Notes: generated by a model from the letters alone, not told the origin. Counted from the first letter of the stretch, positions 5,402 through 37,195 are shown. The stretch: 64,000 nt of DNA from Escherichia coli (GCF_965641715.1 NZ_OZ282453.1); one strand, 5' to 3'. Made by a program: numbers and translations.

Positions 5402-6619
5402 ATGCCCGAACCCGTAGCCGAACCCGCGCTAAACGGATTGCGCCTGAATTTGCGCATTGTCTCCATTGTCATGTTTAACTTCGCCAGCTACCTCACCATC
5501 GGGTTGCCGCTCGCTGTATTACCGGGCTATGTCCATGATGTGATGGGCTTTAGCGCTTTCTGGGCAGGATTGGTTATCAGCCTGCAATATTTTGCCACCT
5601 TGCTGAGCCGTCCTCATGCCGGACGTTACGCCGATTTGCTGGGCCCCAAAAAGATTGTCGTCTTCGGTTTATGCGGCTGCTTTTTGAGCGGTCTGGGATA
5701 TCTGACGGCAGGATTAACCGCCAGTCAGCCCGTCATCAGCCTGTTATTACTTTGCCTGGGACGCGTCATCCTTGGGATTGGGCAAAGTTTTGCCGGAACG
5801 GGATCGACCCTGTGGGGCGTTGGCGTGGTTGGCTCGCTGCATATCGGGCGGGTGATTTCGTGGAACGGCATTGTCACTTACGGGGCGATGGCGATGGGTG
5901 CGCCGTTAGGCGTCGTGTTTTATCACTGGGGCGGCTTGCAGGCGTTAGCGTTAATCATTATGGGCGTGGCGCTGGTGGCCATTTTGTTGGCGATCCCGCG
6001 TCCGACGGTAAAAGCCAGTAAAGGCAAACCGCTGCCGTTTCGCGCGGTGCTTGGGCGCGTCTGGCTGTACGGTATGGCGCTGGCGTTGGCTTCCGCCGGA
6101 TTTGGCGTCATCGCCACCTTTATCACGCTGTTTTATGACGCTAAAGGTTGGGACGGTGCGGCTTTCGCGCTGACGCTGTTTAGCTGTGCGTTTGTCGGTA
6201 CGCGTTTGTTATTCCCTAACGGCATTAACCGTATCGGCGGCTTAAACGTAGCGATGATTTGCTTTAGCGTTGAGATAATCGGCCTGCTACTGGTTGGCGT
6301 GGCGACTATGCCGTGGATGGCGAAAATCGGCGTCTTACTGGCGGGGGCCGGGTTTTCGCTGGTGTTCCCGGCATTGGGTGTAGTGGCGGTAAAAGCGGTT
6401 CCGCAGCAAAATCAGGGGGCGGCGCTGGCAACTTACACCGTATTTATGGATTTATCGCTTGGCGTGACTGGACCACTGGCTGGGCTGGTGATGAGCTGGG
6501 CGGGCGTACCGGTGATTTATCTGGCGGCGGCGGGACTGGTCGCAATCGCGTTATTACTGACGTGGCGATTAAAAAAACGGCCTCCGGAACACGTCCCTGA
6601 GGCCGCCTCATCATCTTAA
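5402..6619 (+). CDS. yhhS: MFS transporter
   Basis: ORF 5360..6619; start MPEPVAEP matches the 405-aa K-12 protein. Confidence 0.9.
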   Translation: MPEPVAEPALNGLRLNLRIVSIVMFNFASYLTIGLPLAVLPGYVHDVMGFSAFWAGLVISLQYFATLLSRPHAGRYADLLGPKKIVVFGLCGCFLSGLGYLTAGLTASQPVISLLLLCLGRVILGIGQSFAGTGSTLWGVGVVGSLHIGRVISWNGIVTYGAMAMGAPLGVVFYHWGGLQALALIIMGVALVAILLAIPRPTVKASKGKPLPFRAVLGRVWLYGMALALASAGFGVIATFITLFYDAKGWDGAAFALTLFSCAFVGTRLLFPNGINRIGGLNVAMICFSVEIIGLLLVGVATMPWMAKIGVLLAGAGFSLVFPALGVVAVKAVPQQNQGAALATYTVFMDLSLGVTGPLAGLVMSWAGVPVIYLAAAGLVAIALLLTWRLKKRPPEHVPEAASSS

Positions 6620-6622
6620 AAC

Positions 6623-7180
6623 TTACTGAATAACCAGCGTATTAATGATGTTTTCTGCGGTGGTCTGCGCTTTTTGCTGATCGTCAGCTGGCAGAGTAAT
6701 TTGCATGGTCAGCAGTTGATTACCCACGTTACCCAGAATAACGGAAGAGTACGCCGTCTGGCCTTTCGCGGAGATAATACTGTCTAACTGCTGCATTTTG
6801 TGACCTTTCAGCTCAATGGCTTTATTGGTTACCACTTGCAGCTGCGGATCGCGGCTACGTTGCTGATCTTCCAGACGCTTCGCCAGCACCGCCAGATCTT
6901 CTTTCGGATCATCGCCCATGATGACGATGACTGCTTTCTGCCCGGTGGCGTCGGACCAGACATGCATGTTATTGGCCTGCGTTCCCAGCTTACCGCTCTG
7001 GTCGGTCATATCCGCTGGCAGCGAGAAACTTAACTTGCCATCAAGCAGGTTGACGGGATTCCCGGTAGCGTTACTTTCCGCGACCGAACCCTGCGCCGTA
7101 GCGTTAGTGTCTTTATCATCACAGGCCGCAAGCCCCATAACCAGCAGGCCAATTCCGACATATTTAACCAGATTGCGCAT
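6623..7180 (-). CDS. dcrB: Periplasmic lipoprotein DcrB
   Basis: ORF 6623..7234; start [20 protein letters not shown] with lipobox. Confidence 0.9.
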
Positions 7181-32283: not shown

Positions 32284-34029
32284 ATGATAAAACCGACGTT
32301 TTTACGCCGGGTGGCCATTGCTGCTCTGTTCACAGGAAGTTGTTTTAGTACGGTAGCCGCGCCACCTGCGCCGTCTCCTGTTTCTTACGGCGTGGAGGAA
32401 GATGTCTTTCATCCGGTACGCGCGAAACAGGGGATGGTGGCATCTGTAGATGCTACTGCCACTCAGGTGGGGGTGGATATCCTCAAGGAGGGCGGGAATG
32501 CCGTTGATGCCGCCGTGGCTGTGGGCTACGCGCTGGCGGTAACGCATCCGCAGGCAGGGAATCTGGGCGGTGGTGGTTTTATGCTGATCCGCTCGAAAAA
32601 TGGCAATACCACCGCTATCGATTTCCGCGAAATGGCACCCGCCAAAGCGACCCGCGATATGTTCCTTGATGACCAGGGCAACCCGGACAGCAAAAAATCA
32701 CTCACTTCGCATCTGGCTTCCGGCACGCCCGGTACGGTCGCTGGTTTCTCGCTGGCGTTGGATAAATACGGCACAATGCCGTTGAACAAAGTGGTGCAGC
32801 CAGCGTTTAAACTGGCACGCGATGGTTTTATCGTTAACGACGCGCTGGCTGACGATCTCAAAACCTACGGGAGCGAAGTGCTGCCGAATCACGAAAACAG
32901 CAAGGCTATCTTCTGGAAAGAGGGCGAGCCGCTGAAAAAGGGCGACAAGCTGGTGCAGGCGAACCTGGCAAAGAGCCTGGAGATGATTGCCGAAAACGGC
33001 CCGGACGAATTCTACAAAGGCACGATAGCGGAACAGATTGCCCAGGAGATGCAGAAAAACGGTGGCCTGATCACTAAAGAAGATTTAGCGGCGTATAAAG
33101 CGGTCGAACGCACACCGATAAGCGGCGATTATCGCGGGTATCAGGTTTACTCTATGCCACCGCCATCTTCCGGTGGGATTCATATCGTGCAGATCCTCAA
33201 TATTCTGGAAAACTTCGATATGAAGAAATACGGCTTTGGCAGTGCCGATGCGATGCAAATCATGGCAGAGGCTGAGAAATACGCCTACGCCGACCGCTCG
33301 GAATATCTTGGCGACCCGGATTTTGTCAAAGTCCCGTGGCAGGCGCTGACCAATAAAGCCTATGCCAAATCTATTGCCGAGCAAATCGATATCAATAAAG
33401 CGAAACCGTCCAGCGAGATTCGCCCTGGCAAGCTTGCGCCTTATGAGAGTAATCAAACTACCCATTACTCAGTGGTGGATAAAGACGGTAACGCCGTGGC
33501 GGTGACCTATACGCTGAACACCACCTTCGGTACGGGTATTGTCGCGGGCGAGAGCGGTATTCTGCTTAATAACCAGATGGATGATTTCTCCGCCAAACCG
33601 GGCGTACCGAACGTTTACGGGCTGGTAGGCGGTGATGCCAACGCGGTCGGGCCGAATAAACGCCCGCTGTCGTCGATGTCACCAACCATTGTGGTGAAAG
33701 ACGGTAAAACCTGGCTGGTTACCGGTAGCCCTGGCGGGAGCCGGATTATTACCACCGTGCTGCAAATGGTGGTGAATAGCATCGATTATGGCATGAACGT
33801 CGCCGAAGCGACCAATGCGCCGCGTTTCCACCATCAGTGGTTGCCGGACGAGCTGCGTGTCGAAAAAGGGTTTAGCCCGGATACGCTCAAACTGCTGGAA
33901 GCAAAAGGTCAGAAAGTGGCGCTGAAAGAGGCGATGGGCAGTACACAAAGCATTATGGTTGGGCCGGACGGTGAGTTGTACGGCGCATCCGACCCGCGCT
34001 CGGTGGATGATTTAACGGCGGGGTACTAA
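32284..34029 (+). CDS. ggt: Gamma-glutamyltranspeptidase
   Basis: ORF 32257..34029; start MIKPTFLRR; 580 aa. Confidence 0.95.
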   Translation: MIKPTFLRRVAIAALFTGSCFSTVAAPPAPSPVSYGVEEDVFHPVRAKQGMVASVDATATQVGVDILKEGGNAVDAAVAVGYALAVTHPQAGNLGGGGFMLIRSKNGNTTAIDFREMAPAKATRDMFLDDQGNPDSKKSLTSHLASGTPGTVAGFSLALDKYGTMPLNKVVQPAFKLARDGFIVNDALADDLKTYGSEVLPNHENSKAIFWKEGEPLKKGDKLVQANLAKSLEMIAENGPDEFYKGTIAEQIAQEMQKNGGLITKEDLAAYKAVERTPISGDYRGYQVYSMPPPSSGGIHIVQILNILENFDMKKYGFGSADAMQIMAEAEKYAYADRSEYLGDPDFVKVPWQALTNKAYAKSIAEQIDINKAKPSSEIRPGKLAPYESNQTTHYSVVDKDGNAVAVTYTLNTTFGTGIVAGESGILLNNQMDDFSAKPGVPNVYGLVGGDANAVGPNKRPLSSMSPTIVVKDGKTWLVTGSPGGSRIITTVLQMVVNSIDYGMNVAEATNAPRFHHQWLPDELRVEKGFSPDTLKLLEAKGQKVALKEAMGSTQSIMVGPDGELYGASDPRSVDDLTAGY

Positions 34030-34066
34030 GGTTAGCGGCCCTCTTCGTGGGAAGAGGGCTATTTTG

Positions 34067-34351
34067 TCAGGGCAAGCCGAAGGTAGCCTTTTTTATTTCG
34101 TAATCCTGTAGATATTCTTCCAGCGGCTTTGCCGTTCCCAGAGAATGAATTTCACCACTGTCTTTATCAATAATAAAAGGTGCGTTACCAGCTAAGCGCG
34201 CGGCCTCATCTCCAGTTTCGAGAAATTCTCGTGCTTCGAAACAGAAATACCAGCCCTGGCTAAAGCGTCCATGTAGAGTAATGACGACCGGGAGATCTGC
34301 ATCATCAAGGTAATGGTTCGCTTTCGCGAATGCGTCGTGATAAGTAATCAT
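34067..34351 (-). CDS. yrhB: YrhB-family small protein (immunity-like)
   Basis: 94 aa; matches recalled K-12 YrhB. Confidence 0.8.
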   Translation of the reverse strand: MITYHDAFAKANHYLDDADLPVVITLHGRFSQGWYFCFEAREFLETGDEAARLAGNAPFIIDKDSGEIHSLGTAKPLEEYLQDYEIKKATFGLP

Positions 34352-34800
34352 AATTATAATAAATATTATTGTTGAATGTTATATTATTATTCCTGTGTGA
34401 TACATTGAGCAAAGGTGCATTCATCTTCGTCAAAGATATTATTAAATGCTGGTTTTGAAAAAAGTTCATCGGATAAGATATAGTCACGAAATAAGTATCT
34501 GCTAATATTTTGTGATTTCTTTTTCAGAACGTCGAACGGGATTTTCTTATTTAAGATATCAGAATCTTATGATTTGGGTAAAATTCTAAATAAATCAACA
34601 TGTCACTAAAATCATCATAGCCATTAGCTATTTCGGCTAAAATAGAGACTACATGTCTTCGGTCCATCTCACTTAAGGAGTGTAGTTCCGTTGTAAGTTT
34701 TTCCATAGCTTGCATTGCTAAATTTCGAACAAGGAATTTTCTGGTGGTAATCTCTAAAAAGATGGCATGGTTTACAATGATTTTTGTTTCCTTTTGATTA

Positions 34801-35295
34801 TTATGAACAACTATCCATGATTTCGTTTAAGAATGAAGAGAAATCACTAAACGAACTGAATATATTTTCTGTGCCAATATTATCTCTAATTTCAAAAAAG
34901 TTACTTTTAATGTCATAAGTAAATATTGAAATGCTATCATCCCCGATCACTAACCGTTCTTGTAGATCAGGGTTTATGAAATCATCATTATTTCTATAAA
35001 ATTCATTTACGGCAAAAAGGTTTTTAACTGAAGGTTCTGGAATCGAGAGGCTAAATAATCGCAATCCATTAACTTCGAATCCATCCATTGCTCTTAAAAA
35101 AGTAAGATAATCAGGTTGATTCTTAAAAAGAATACTAACTTCATTACATAACTTCTCCAGGCAATTAGTTGAATTAGAATTAAATTCTATTTGGATTATA
35201 CTTTCAATAAATGATTCCTTGAGCGGTGCTTCAAATGGATAGTCTAAATCATTCATCATTTTTATTAATTTGTTTATTTGGGTTTTAGTCATCAT
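34801..35295 (-). CDS. yrhA: Putative immunity protein for the upstream HNH toxin domain (YrhA-like), intact here
   Basis: 164 aa; start overlaps the toxin ORF stop by 4 bp; low-GC gene. Confidence 0.6.
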   Translation of the reverse strand: MMTKTQINKLIKMMNDLDYPFEAPLKESFIESIIQIEFNSNSTNCLEKLCNEVSILFKNQPDYLTFLRAMDGFEVNGLRLFSLSIPEPSVKNLFAVNEFYRNNDDFINPDLQERLVIGDDSISIFTYDIKSNFFEIRDNIGTENIFSSFSDFSSFLNEIMDSCS

Positions 35296-36470
35296 TTTGT
35301 GGGTTCCATAATATTTTTCATGGGAGGATAAATTGAGCCAGATGGAATGGCCCAGGGAGTGATTTTGCTTTCACCTACTAATATTCCCTTAGCTATTCGT
35401 GATTGCATGTTAGTAAAAACTTTATGATATGGTTCGTTTTCGATTAATACTAAATTTTCGAAATCATTAGTACCACCATCATCTAGAGATAGTTTATGGT
35501 GAACATTATAATTTAGAGGAACATAGCCCTTTCTCATTCTTAAAAGGTCTTCGGTGTTGAATCTTCCAGATGCTTCGGAGGTTTTTGCAAGTTTGATAAG
35601 AAAATTTTTTCTTACAGTTTTGTTAAACTCCTTTCGTAAGTTAGCTAAGTCTTTTGAAGGTCTCTTAATGTATATTATTTATATTATGTCTATGCCATCA
35701 AGAAGTTTTTGTTGATCTCTAAGTTTGCCTAAGTAACTATTTATTTCTGTATATGTATCAACTTTAGAACGCTTTGTTAAAAGAATAGATGCTGTTGCTA
35801 TCGCTATGCCCGCTGTTTTTTCATTTAGTATTTGATCATAGCCTTTGATTGCATCTCCACCCAGTTTTTCCGCAGTATCTCTGAATCCTTCAATGTTCCC
35901 ATTGTATACGCCACCAGCAGCAAGTAGCCTGCCAACAGCTTTGCTGTTTAACGTTTTGAAACGATTATTTGTTTGGTTTTTTGAATTTGGTAAAAACAAA
36001 CGGTTATAATTTTCAGGGAGTGCCAAATAGCTGAACTCGGTATTTGCGATAAGATGTTGACAGAGGATAAATTCATAACTAACAGTTATTGTTTCTGTAT
36101 CCAGTTGATTTTGAATGATCTGATGATGAATAGCCGATAAAAAAGCGCCTCTTAGTTGTGTATAATAATACTTTTCCCATCTACCAAATCTATTGATTCT
36201 ATAAAAGTCAAATTTCATAAATAATTGCTCATTATTGTTAATGGAATTAATAAGTAATGGAGTGCTTTTATCAATTAATTTACAAAATGTCATAGCCTGT
36301 AACTGTGAACCAAGCCCCGTATTAGTAATTCTATTTTCGAGTGAGAATGTAAATATTTCATTCTCATGCCCGCTCTGCCAGCGATTACCTATAGATTCAG
36401 TAGTCCCACAACCTGCGGAGATGCTTCCTTGTTGTTCTCCCGTTACTGTCAGATAAACAATATTACTCAT
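35292..36470 (-). pseudogene. yhhZ: Hcp-domain protein fused to a C-terminal HNH nuclease toxin (yhhZ-like), interrupted by one in-frame TAA at 35679..35681
   Basis: 263-aa ORF with Hcp-like N-terminus; same frame continues after the single stop through 47 codons into the 81-aa HNH ORF (NVHHKLSLDDGGTNDFENLVLIENEPYH); 392 codons in total. Confidence 0.65.
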
Positions 36471-36706
36471 CCCTGAAAAGTCCTTTTATGGCATGCTATT
36501 TTATCAATGGCACTATTATGCTTGTTAATTGTTATTTATTTACTCCAGGAAATTGTAGGCGTATATATTAAAAAATAAAATATTACACTTTAGGAAGTAA
36601 TTATGAGGTAAGTCTCAATATATTTATTGGGAAAATAAATACATTAAAGGAAGGTATGCCGATTTTGAATGACACCCTTTTTCCATCTCAGAAAAAGGGC
36701 ACTATT

Positions 36707-37195
36707 TTACTTCACCCGCGCCATAAAATACGCATCAACATATTCACCATTACGTAATGCGTACTTCTTGCCAGTCCCTTCAATCTCAAAGCCGAATTTT
36801 TTATAGACCTTAATTGCTGGCGCGTTATCGACAAACACCGTTAGCTCAATACGATCTACCCGCAACCAGTTGTCGCACATTTCAATCATCTCTCGCATCA
36901 GGGCGCTGGCGACGCCGCGATTCTTCCAGCGGGCGTCGACACAGATACCAAAATCGGCAACATGACTGCGGCGTGGGCGCTGTTGCACGTCAATGGTGAG
37001 ATGGCCCACGACGTCTCCATCAATACAGGCGACGAGTTGCTTGATGCCGGGACGATTGGCGAGTCGCTCCTGCCACATATAATCGGAAGGATGAGGCACT
37101 TGTAGCGTGTTGTAATACACCTCCGGCTGGGCGTGAATCTGCCTGATGGCCTCGTAATCGCGCGTTTCAGCATGGCGTATCACTATCTCACTCAT
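36707..37195 (-). CDS. yhhY: GNAT-family N-acetyltransferase
   Basis: ORF 36707..37273; start MSEIVIRHAE gives 162 aa. Confidence 0.85.
   Translation of the reverse strand: MSEIVIRHAETRDYEAIRQIHAQPEVYYNTLQVPHPSDYMWQERLANRPGIKQLVACIDGDVVGHLTIDVQQRPRRSHVADFGICVDARWKNRGVASALMREMIEMCDNWLRVDRIELTVFVDNAPAIKVYKKFGFEIEGTGKKYALRNGEYVDAYFMARVK

Follow-up and report, generated by a model that had tools for sequence, protein, structure and literature searches.

The interval 34352-35295 very probably holds an intact YrhA (ETI1) immunity gene beside a disarmed YhhZ toxin gene, followed by an AT-rich tail whose small ORFs are not likely to be immunity genes. It lies in a window of 64,000 nucleotides of Escherichia coli DNA, and its surroundings are those of the E. 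coli ugp-ggt ... yhhY-yhhX region. The locus is the known yhhZ-yrhA-yrhD-yrhB islet, whose biology is already known and annotated; the islet measures about 2.3 kb and the interval forms its 3' half. Transcription on the minus strand follows the order Hcp-HNH frame, 164-aa ORF, 54-aa ORF, 60-aa GTG ORF, yrhB. The 164-aa, 54-aa and 60-aa ORFs and the 4-bp overlap were read from the sequence, and all features of the original prediction are present at the coordinates it gave. The islet, its main genes and the flanking yrhB are as follows.

34368-36704, unstranded: low-GC islet (about 30-37% GC) carrying yrhD, yrhA and yhhZ, between yrhB and yhhY (GC profile and alignment to an islet-less strain).
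34067-34351, minus strand: yrhB, Imm35-family gene flanking the islet (Pfam Imm35, PF15567, 81.8 bits, E = 4e-23).
34801-35295, minus strand: yrhA, intact 164-aa immunity gene of the SUKH superfamily (ORF, NCBIfam and predicted fold).
35292-35295, minus strand: ATGA, 4-bp overlap of the yrhA start and the toxin-frame stop (read from the sequence).
35292-36470, minus strand: yhhZ/tssD, Hcp-ET1 type with Hcp domain, conserved linker and C-terminal HNH nuclease, a pseudogene here (translation and Pfam).
35679-35681, minus strand: nonsense codon TAA, E264* (A at plus-strand position 35681, C in other strains).
35292-35537, minus strand: 81-aa residual ORF from M312 with the HNH core motif HH...N...H (ORF and Pfam).

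The islet is widespread. Of 5426 complete E. coli genomes, 4506 matched the 2.7-kb segment in a megablast search, 3757 of them with coverage of at least 80%, and the matched genomes carry the annotations tssD (yhhZ), yrhA, yrhD and yrhB. The gene order is identical in the annotated loci of PapRG-04-4, W and a K-12 derivative. Alignment of the window to a strain that has yrhB and lacks yhhZ, yrhA and yrhD stops at 34367 and resumes at 36705, and the GC content falls from about 0.53 to about 0.30 at the islet edges. Because these alignment breaks coincide with the drop in GC, the AT-rich tail and the toxin and immunity genes belong to one acquired islet. The islet would be a low-GC element of horizontal origin, found between yhhY and yrhB in many E. 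coli. No terminal repeats bounding it were found in a repeat search, and an Rfam scan of 33900-36900 returned snoRNA matches only, all of them below threshold. Other states of the site exist: O157:H7 has a DUF4225 gene there and no yrhB, strain YPE12 has lost yrhA and yhhZ in an IS1-associated deletion, and frameshifted yrhA variants are present in some E. coli. The flanking yrhB is kept in strains without the islet. Its product passes the Imm35 gathering threshold of 27.5 bits over all profile positions (1-85 of 85), its frame is intact in 12 of 12 loci (piN/piS 0.24, nucleotide diversity 0.023), and it is predicted to be an orphan immunity protein.

The toxin gene in the window is a pseudogene, a point that the original prediction missed. 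Its frame of 1179 nt (392 codons) has a sole in-frame stop after residue 263, where the closest strain has GAA (Glu264) and the window TAA, a G-to-T change upstream of the HNH domain. Pfam detects T6SS_HCP in the 263-aa N-terminal part (E = 1e-12), while the HNH domain of the C-terminal part is seen only in the 81-aa ORF and stays below the Pfam cut-off (19.9 bits vs 21.4). As E264* separates them, no single protein can contain both the Hcp and the HNH part. The proposed coupling of the 164-aa ORF to an HNH toxin stands as far as the 4-bp overlap with the HNH frame is concerned, but the gene upstream no longer encodes a whole toxin. In most other strains the toxin gene is intact and encodes 392-aa YhhZ orthologues. 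The exact 61-mer around E264* occurs in two of 3500 genomes matching the segment, A30 and 2018-05-2CC, and PGAP marks tssD of both as a pseudogene with an 'internal stop'. Over 2701 bp the window differs from A30 at 11 positions and from 2018-05-2CC at 26. The inactivation looks recent, because the toxin domain differs from that of the closest intact allele (PapRG-04-4) by the stop and T306A only.

This near identity, together with the HH...N...H core and the ATGA junction that the residual 81-aa ORF keeps at its end, could be read as a sign that translation from M312 still yields a mildly toxic HNH protein, which would keep yrhA and the ATGA coupling under selection. We consider such a role very unlikely: reading of the sequence found no Shine-Dalgarno or other ribosome-binding site upstream of M312, and the ORF is without about 50 residues conserved in all homologous toxin modules.

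The immunity gene is intact. Its ATG occupies 35295-35293 and the toxin-frame TGA 35294-35292, an arrangement also annotated in other E. coli; yrhA has no clear Shine-Dalgarno sequence of its own. The window protein is 100% identical to the common allele WP_000988496.1 and is assigned to the YrhA family of NCBIfam (NF038335; 125.5 bits against a cut-off of 55, E = 1.5e-36, residues 4-163). Pfam gave no family at E up to 1, SMI1_KNR4, SUKH_5 and SUKH_6 included. A YrhA-family profile built from 17 members found 119 relatives at E up to 1e-3 among 1.84 billion representative proteins. When 89 full-length aligned sequences, mostly relatives from this search, were scanned, SMI1_KNR4 was detected in 48, SUKH_6 in 44 and SUKH_5 in 28. 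The AF2 model computed from the 89-sequence alignment reached pLDDT 93 and pTM 0.88; it replaced an earlier model from 20 close homologues that was unusable (pLDDT 51). The leading Foldseek matches of this model in the PDB are all SUKH proteins, namely YobK (2prv), BF1740 (3d5p), 2icg (Lin), yeast Knr4 (6qbo), PSPTO_5518 (2pag), FBXO3 and Syd, with probabilities of 0.89-1.00 and query TM values of 0.48-0.55 for 2prv, 3d5p, 2icg, 6qbo and 2pag; identity to the solved SUKH structures is 10-16% only. When the YrhA alignment was used as a profile against PDB sequences, only antibody heavy chains came up, which were judged chance matches. Through transitive profile matches and the predicted structure, YrhA can be placed in the SUKH superfamily, despite having no direct Pfam match. 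Zhang, Iyer and Aravind are reported to have described SUKH proteins in 2011 (NAR 39:4532) as the classic immunity proteins of nuclease toxins.

Selection was assessed on 12 E. coli loci only, the window and 11 strains of 96-99.6% identity. The yrhA frame is intact in all 12, with piN/piS of 0.18 and nucleotide diversity of 0.015, and by these statistics the gene is under purifying selection.

The association of YrhA with the HNH module extends to other genera. In Citrobacter the order is yhhY, Hcp-HNH gene, YrhA homologue and then ggt, and on a Citrobacter-type metagenomic contig the homologue adjoins a toxin with an Hcp N-terminus. In Leclercia and on the metagenomic contig L022 it lies 10-16 bp downstream of a toxin with a DUF8093 N-terminus, whose last 210 residues or so are 55-68% identical to the C-terminal module of YhhZ. 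A third N-terminal domain, encoded beside TraG/TraH on contig L023, is joined to an HNH module (49% identical) and followed by a YrhA homologue. Across the homologues, identity of the HNH module to that of YhhZ is 49-68% over about 210 aa, and the spacing between a YhhZ-type module and the YrhA homologue ranges from an 11-bp overlap to 16 bp in the Citrobacter-type contig, Leclercia, L022 and L023. In C. youngae, where the toxin ORF is shortened, it is 59 bp. Contig L021 differs, as Ntox30 takes the place of HNH after the conserved linker of a DUF8093 toxin and the YrhA-like gene is an orphan that lies at a greater distance, with another small gene in between. As the HNH module and YrhA travel together while the delivery domains are swapped, the locus bears the signature of a polymorphic toxin cassette.

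Outside immunity loci, SUKH/SMI1-KNR4 domains also occur in proteins such as Knr4, FBXO3 and Syd, so YrhA could be imagined as a SUKH protein with an unrelated housekeeping role that stands beside yhhZ by accident. This is the least probable of the readings considered: YrhA keeps its place beside the HNH module while N-terminal delivery domains and genomic contexts vary, toxin and YrhA are co-inherited in one islet, and neutralisation by ETI1 has been published, as relayed in passages of a review and of a preprint (bioRxiv 10.1101/2024.03.05.583533). The original proposal of an intact immunity-type gene coupled to the HNH frame is thus borne out by family membership, predicted fold, conserved adjacency and low piN/piS.

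YrhA matches ETI1 by gene position and by the statement of one preprint. Hcp-ET1 is delivered by T6SS2 and neutralised by ETI1, according to passages in PMC6730261 and PMC6099711 that relay Ma et al. 2017 (Virulence 8:1189). The O22:H8 strain 154 is described as having an orphan hcp, located away from its T6SS clusters, that shares 99% identity with Hcp-ET1; the next gene downstream shares 99.4% with ETI1, the protein that neutralises the DNase (bioRxiv 10.1101/2024.03.05.583533). In the region of strain 154 that we examined, a Hcp-HNH gene is found only at the ggt-yhhY locus; it is followed by YrhA WP_000988496.1, to which the YrhA of the window is identical. YhhZ has also been classed as a His-Me finger T6SS effector (PMC5714182).

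The islet would therefore encode the polymorphic T6SS toxin YhhZ, with an Hcp tube domain, a conserved linker and an HNH DNase, and its cognate SUKH-superfamily immunity protein YrhA. The DNase activity, the neutralisation by ETI1 and the T6SS2-dependent delivery are those described in the literature for orthologues, and would be expected here by analogy. YrhA presumably binds and blocks the nuclease domain, as other SUKH immunity proteins do, so that the cell would be shielded from its own toxin or from toxin that sister cells inject. In the window strain the single G-to-T change E264*, just upstream of the HNH domain, would have disarmed the toxin. Because yrhA is intact and the toxin carries E264*, we infer that immunity is retained, and the strain is expected to be still immune and unable to deliver the toxin. 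An intact ORF is no proof that immunity is expressed, since yrhA has no obvious ribosome-binding site of its own, its start overlaps the toxin stop, and an upstream nonsense codon could cut its translation. E264* lies 387 nt upstream of yrhA and may weaken its expression through lost coupling or polarity, an effect that internal promoters or re-initiation could offset.

The state with a dead toxin and a kept immunity gene might also be a selected strategy, disarmed but shielded, instead of merely a recent accident. Expression of yrhA would then have to survive E264*, perhaps by re-initiation at the 81-aa ORF, which would preserve the ATGA coupling. We think it quite unlikely that selection produced this state. 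If it had, the lineage would save the cost or risk of making Hcp-ET1 and stay protected from gut E. coli armed with it, and the reciprocal state of K-12 would mark the locus as a target of repeated loss in both directions.

No IS element is present in 34000-36700 of the window, which aligns base for base and without gaps to non-K-12 strains; this agrees with the original prediction. Its statement that IS1 disrupts yrhA in K-12 was also correct, as IS1 sits inside yrhA in K-12-derived genomes and IS1E has been located in the uncharacterized yrhA gene of K-12 (PMC12428005). Alignment with the K-12 region shows the same genes in the same order, with the insertion in K-12 only, at the following target.

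34906-34914, unstranded: TTTAATGTC, 9-bp target occupied and duplicated by IS1E in K-12, empty here (K-12-derived junction sequences).

The K-12-type junction was found in at most 426 of the 5426 complete genomes, so an uninterrupted yrhA is the usual E. coli state and not a special feature of this strain.

Downstream of yrhA, the 449-bp spacer to yrhB (34352-34800) has 30% GC. It contains two small ORFs and is preceded by a promoter-like site.

34551-34715, minus strand: yrhD, 54-aa ORF from 34715, annotated as 51 aa from the second ATG at 34706 (PGAP 'protein YrhD').
34305-34487, minus strand: 60-aa GTG ORF overlapping the 5' end of yrhB out of frame (ORF call; judged spurious).
34859-34888, minus strand: promoter-like TAGAGA-18-TATATT in the 3' part of yrhA, upstream of yrhD (consensus scan).

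The translation of the 54-aa ORF is exactly the one quoted in the original prediction; the ORF is not an unrecognised orphan but the annotated yrhD. Of 1000 shuffles of the 449-bp stretch that preserved dinucleotides, 264 (26%) gave an ORF of at least 54 aa, so that the small ORFs do not exceed what chance produces. In the 12 loci yrhD carries a stop in five, its piN/piS is 1.46, and its nucleotide diversity of 0.036 is near that of the flanking intergenic DNA (0.048-0.053). Two independent nonsense alleles were found: L23* (TTA-to-TAA, codon 23) in three of the sampled strains, with the ATG lost as well in two of them, and Y39* (TAT-to-TAG, codon 39) in two others. Both yrhA and yhhZ are intact in all five carriers. 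By exact 61-mers, at least 454 genomes carry L23*, among them those of Nissle 1917 and the type strain ATCC 11775, and at least 147 carry Y39*, which makes at least 601 for both alleles together. The 60-aa ORF is interrupted by a stop in the same five strains, has a piN/piS of 0.72 and is annotated in none of the records examined.

Homology searches found YrhD homologues in E. coli only, often truncated. Tblastn and blastn searches with YrhD, the 60-aa ORF and the 449-bp tail gave no match in the Citrobacter, Leclercia and metagenomic YrhA loci, and YrhD, its 88-aa extended form and the 60-aa ORF gave nothing credible in Pfam, NCBIfam or PADLOC. The homology check on the small proteins proposed earlier thus came back empty outside E. 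coli. Matches of the small ORFs to DUF1463 (E 0.004, 17 bits where the cut-off is 25) and to TPGS1_C were not accepted. Plasmid matches of YrhD by tblastn to Yersinia 'HEPN domain' genes (E 0.7-2) lie on the opposite strand to the CDS and were put down to chance.

The support for yrhD as a gene consists of its annotation (EcoGene/PGAP) and an in vitro RpoD-holoenzyme site only. The TAGAGA/TATATT hexamer pair was assigned to yrhD in an in vitro genomic SELEX with the RpoD holoenzyme (PMC3946193), as a 'constitutive promoter' whose hexamers lie at 34888-34859. Promoter-like sites are not enriched in the region (9 found, 10.6 expected from shuffles), and neither are terminator-like sites over shuffles. 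The annotation, this promoter, a frame open in seven of the 12 loci, and the fact that yrhD travels with the islet and is missing where the islet is missing would fit a real gene for a small protein (an additional immunity factor, an adaptor or a regulator) in open-frame A/B1-type lineages, the window included. We hold this to be improbable in view of the high piN/piS, a diversity more than twice the 0.015 of yrhA, the nonsense alleles and start-codon loss beside intact yrhA and yhhZ, the lack of homologues outside E. coli or 3' of YrhA homologues in other genera, and the shuffle result; reading of the sequence found no Shine-Dalgarno sequence either. By its pattern of polymorphism yrhD evolves without detectable constraint, and it is probably not a functional gene.

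Decayed cassettes are common at the 3' end of polymorphic toxin loci, and the tail might be one, a former orphan immunity gene or toxin tip of which yrhD is the last open fragment. It shares the low GC of the islet and is gained and lost with it, and in some strains the yrhD frame reaches upstream to 88 aa. In other genera, too, the neighbourhood of the YrhA homologue varies: 85-aa and 87-aa ORFs lie 3' of it in Citrobacter, Imm63 and Imm70 are nearby in Leclercia, and after the DUF8093-Ntox30 pair the YrhA-like gene is itself an orphan. However, the searches linked the tail neither to a protein family nor to the neighbouring genes in Citrobacter and Leclercia, and no ancestral gene can be named; we consider this origin rather unlikely. 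Between the two roles first suggested for the small ORFs, that of remnants or non-genes fits far better than that of small immunity proteins. A small immunity protein would show a conserved open frame under purifying selection and co-retention with the toxin, a combination that neither yrhD nor the 60-aa ORF displays. An immunity role is unlikely for both, and they look like neutrally drifting or chance frames.

The locus is a textbook polymorphic toxin-immunity islet, and the twist specific to this strain is minor. Reference annotations already name all its ORFs apart from the spurious 60-aa one, so that the significance lies mainly in their correct annotation. On this point, yrhD is annotated as a protein gene in K-12 and yet is pseudogenised in whole lineages, and its status as a gene deserves doubt.

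Among known systems, the window compares most directly with Hcp-ET1/ETI1. There the immunity gene lies directly downstream of the effector, as it does here with a 4-bp overlap, and Hcp-ET1 is a single polypeptide with an N-terminal Hcp and a C-terminal HNH-DNase, whereas in the window the one frame is split at codon 264. YrhA is also similar to SUKH immunity proteins such as B. subtilis YobK, both in its predicted fold (2prv, 3d5p and 2icg at probability 1.00 and TM of about 0.55) and in being encoded directly downstream of a nuclease toxin domain; unlike some of its distant relatives, it falls below every Pfam SUKH model, and it has its own NCBIfam family, NF038335. The orphan-immunity and poly-immunity tails of CDI, Rhs and T6SS loci offer a further parallel. 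As in these, the window keeps an immunity gene without a working cognate toxin and is flanked by another predicted immunity gene (yrhB, Imm35), and the content 3' of the YrhA homologues differs between genera. In contrast to such tails, that of the window has no recognisable immunity family, and yrhD and the 60-aa ORF are unconstrained. Finally, K-12 (yhhZ, yrhA'-IS1E-'yrhA, yrhD, yrhB) has the same genes in the same order, with about 97-99% identity in the aligned blocks, and is in the reciprocal state: its toxin ORF is intact and its immunity gene is cut by IS1 at TTTAATGTC, near codon 130. The window carries the mirror image of this as a rare allele, in which the broken partner is the toxin, inactivated by a nonsense codon, and the immunity gene is intact.

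The Hcp-HNH toxin gene yhhZ/tssD carries a nonsense mutation in the window, where a single G-to-T change replaces the codon for glutamate 264 with a stop.

35679-35681, minus strand: in-frame TAA (E264*) in yhhZ/tssD, which spans 35292-36470

Among 3500 E. coli genomes matching the segment, this allele occurs in two, strains A30 and 2018-05-2CC only, and the window comes from neither of them. Variation along the remainder of the gene is uneven, with the Hcp domain being its most variable portion.

36110-36400: Hcp domain of YhhZ, residues ~24-120

YhhZ shows 24 amino-acid differences from the protein of strain W, at least 14 of them within residues 24-120, and only three from that of PapRG-04-4, the closest intact allele. 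The Hcp portion of yhhZ has a synonymous diversity of 0.071, compared with 0.023 for the HNH portion. This uneven distribution suggests allelic mosaicism or recombination inside yhhZ.

The delivery and toxin domains are joined by a conserved linker of the pattern ~LNSKAxGRLLAAGGxYNGNxxGFRxTAExLGGDAxKGYDQxLNExT, followed by a hydrophobic stretch.

35780-35960: conserved YhhZ linker, residues ~170-230, with counterparts at L010:5350-5520 and, on a contig where the linker precedes Ntox30, at L021:815-990

The linker is common to Hcp-HNH, DUF8093-HNH and DUF8093-Ntox30 proteins, and where Ntox30 replaces HNH, likeness to YhhZ ends immediately past it. Judged from these sequences, it appears to be a swap point of toxin domains, resembling a pre-toxin domain.

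The surroundings of the toxin gene also differ between genomes. Citrobacter youngae has other genes at this locus.

L008:3671-4555 and 6516-7070: other genes of Citrobacter youngae

One of these, an additional gene encoding 294 aa with a hydrophobic, signal-peptide-like N-terminus, separates yhhY from the Hcp-HNH gene. Two unrelated genes of 85 and 87 aa, for which no family matches were found, occupy the position of E. coli yrhD and yrhB. In C. youngae the Hcp-HNH ORF encodes only 371 aa, a shortened version compared with the 394 aa of a related contig. In O157:H7 strain 2-6-2 the ggt-yhhY interval lacks both yrhB and the low-GC islet, and contains another insert.

L014:5067-6884: 1.8-kb insert encoding a DUF4225 protein, at the same chromosomal site as in the window

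Since this insert differs from the islet, at least three different contents occur between ggt and yhhY, which makes the site a hotspot. The convergent genes ggt and yrhB are separated by a strong hairpin that is GC-rich and has a T-run, GGCCCTCTTC-GTGG-GAAGAGGGCT (34037-34060, plus strand); it is likely the ggt terminator and may act bidirectionally.

In E. coli the pair is also lost by other routes. Two frameshifted YrhA variants of 155 aa (P0053 and P0044) take their C-terminus from an alternative frame (window 34827-34940), and in strain YPE12 an IS1-associated deletion (L015:3298-3995) removes yrhA and yhhZ, while yrhD and yrhB remain. The K-12 derivative (L002:2416-3183) has an intact 392-aa toxin ORF and a yrhA cut by IS1 near codon 130, whereas the window presents the reciprocal arrangement.

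34906-34914: window position compared with the K-12 IS1 site in yrhA

The yhhZ and yrhA regions are among the H-NS-bound 'promoter islands' (PMC3661553). Candidate explanations for how K-12 tolerates an intact toxin beside a cut yrhA are that H-NS silences the AT-rich islet, or that some YrhA function persists.
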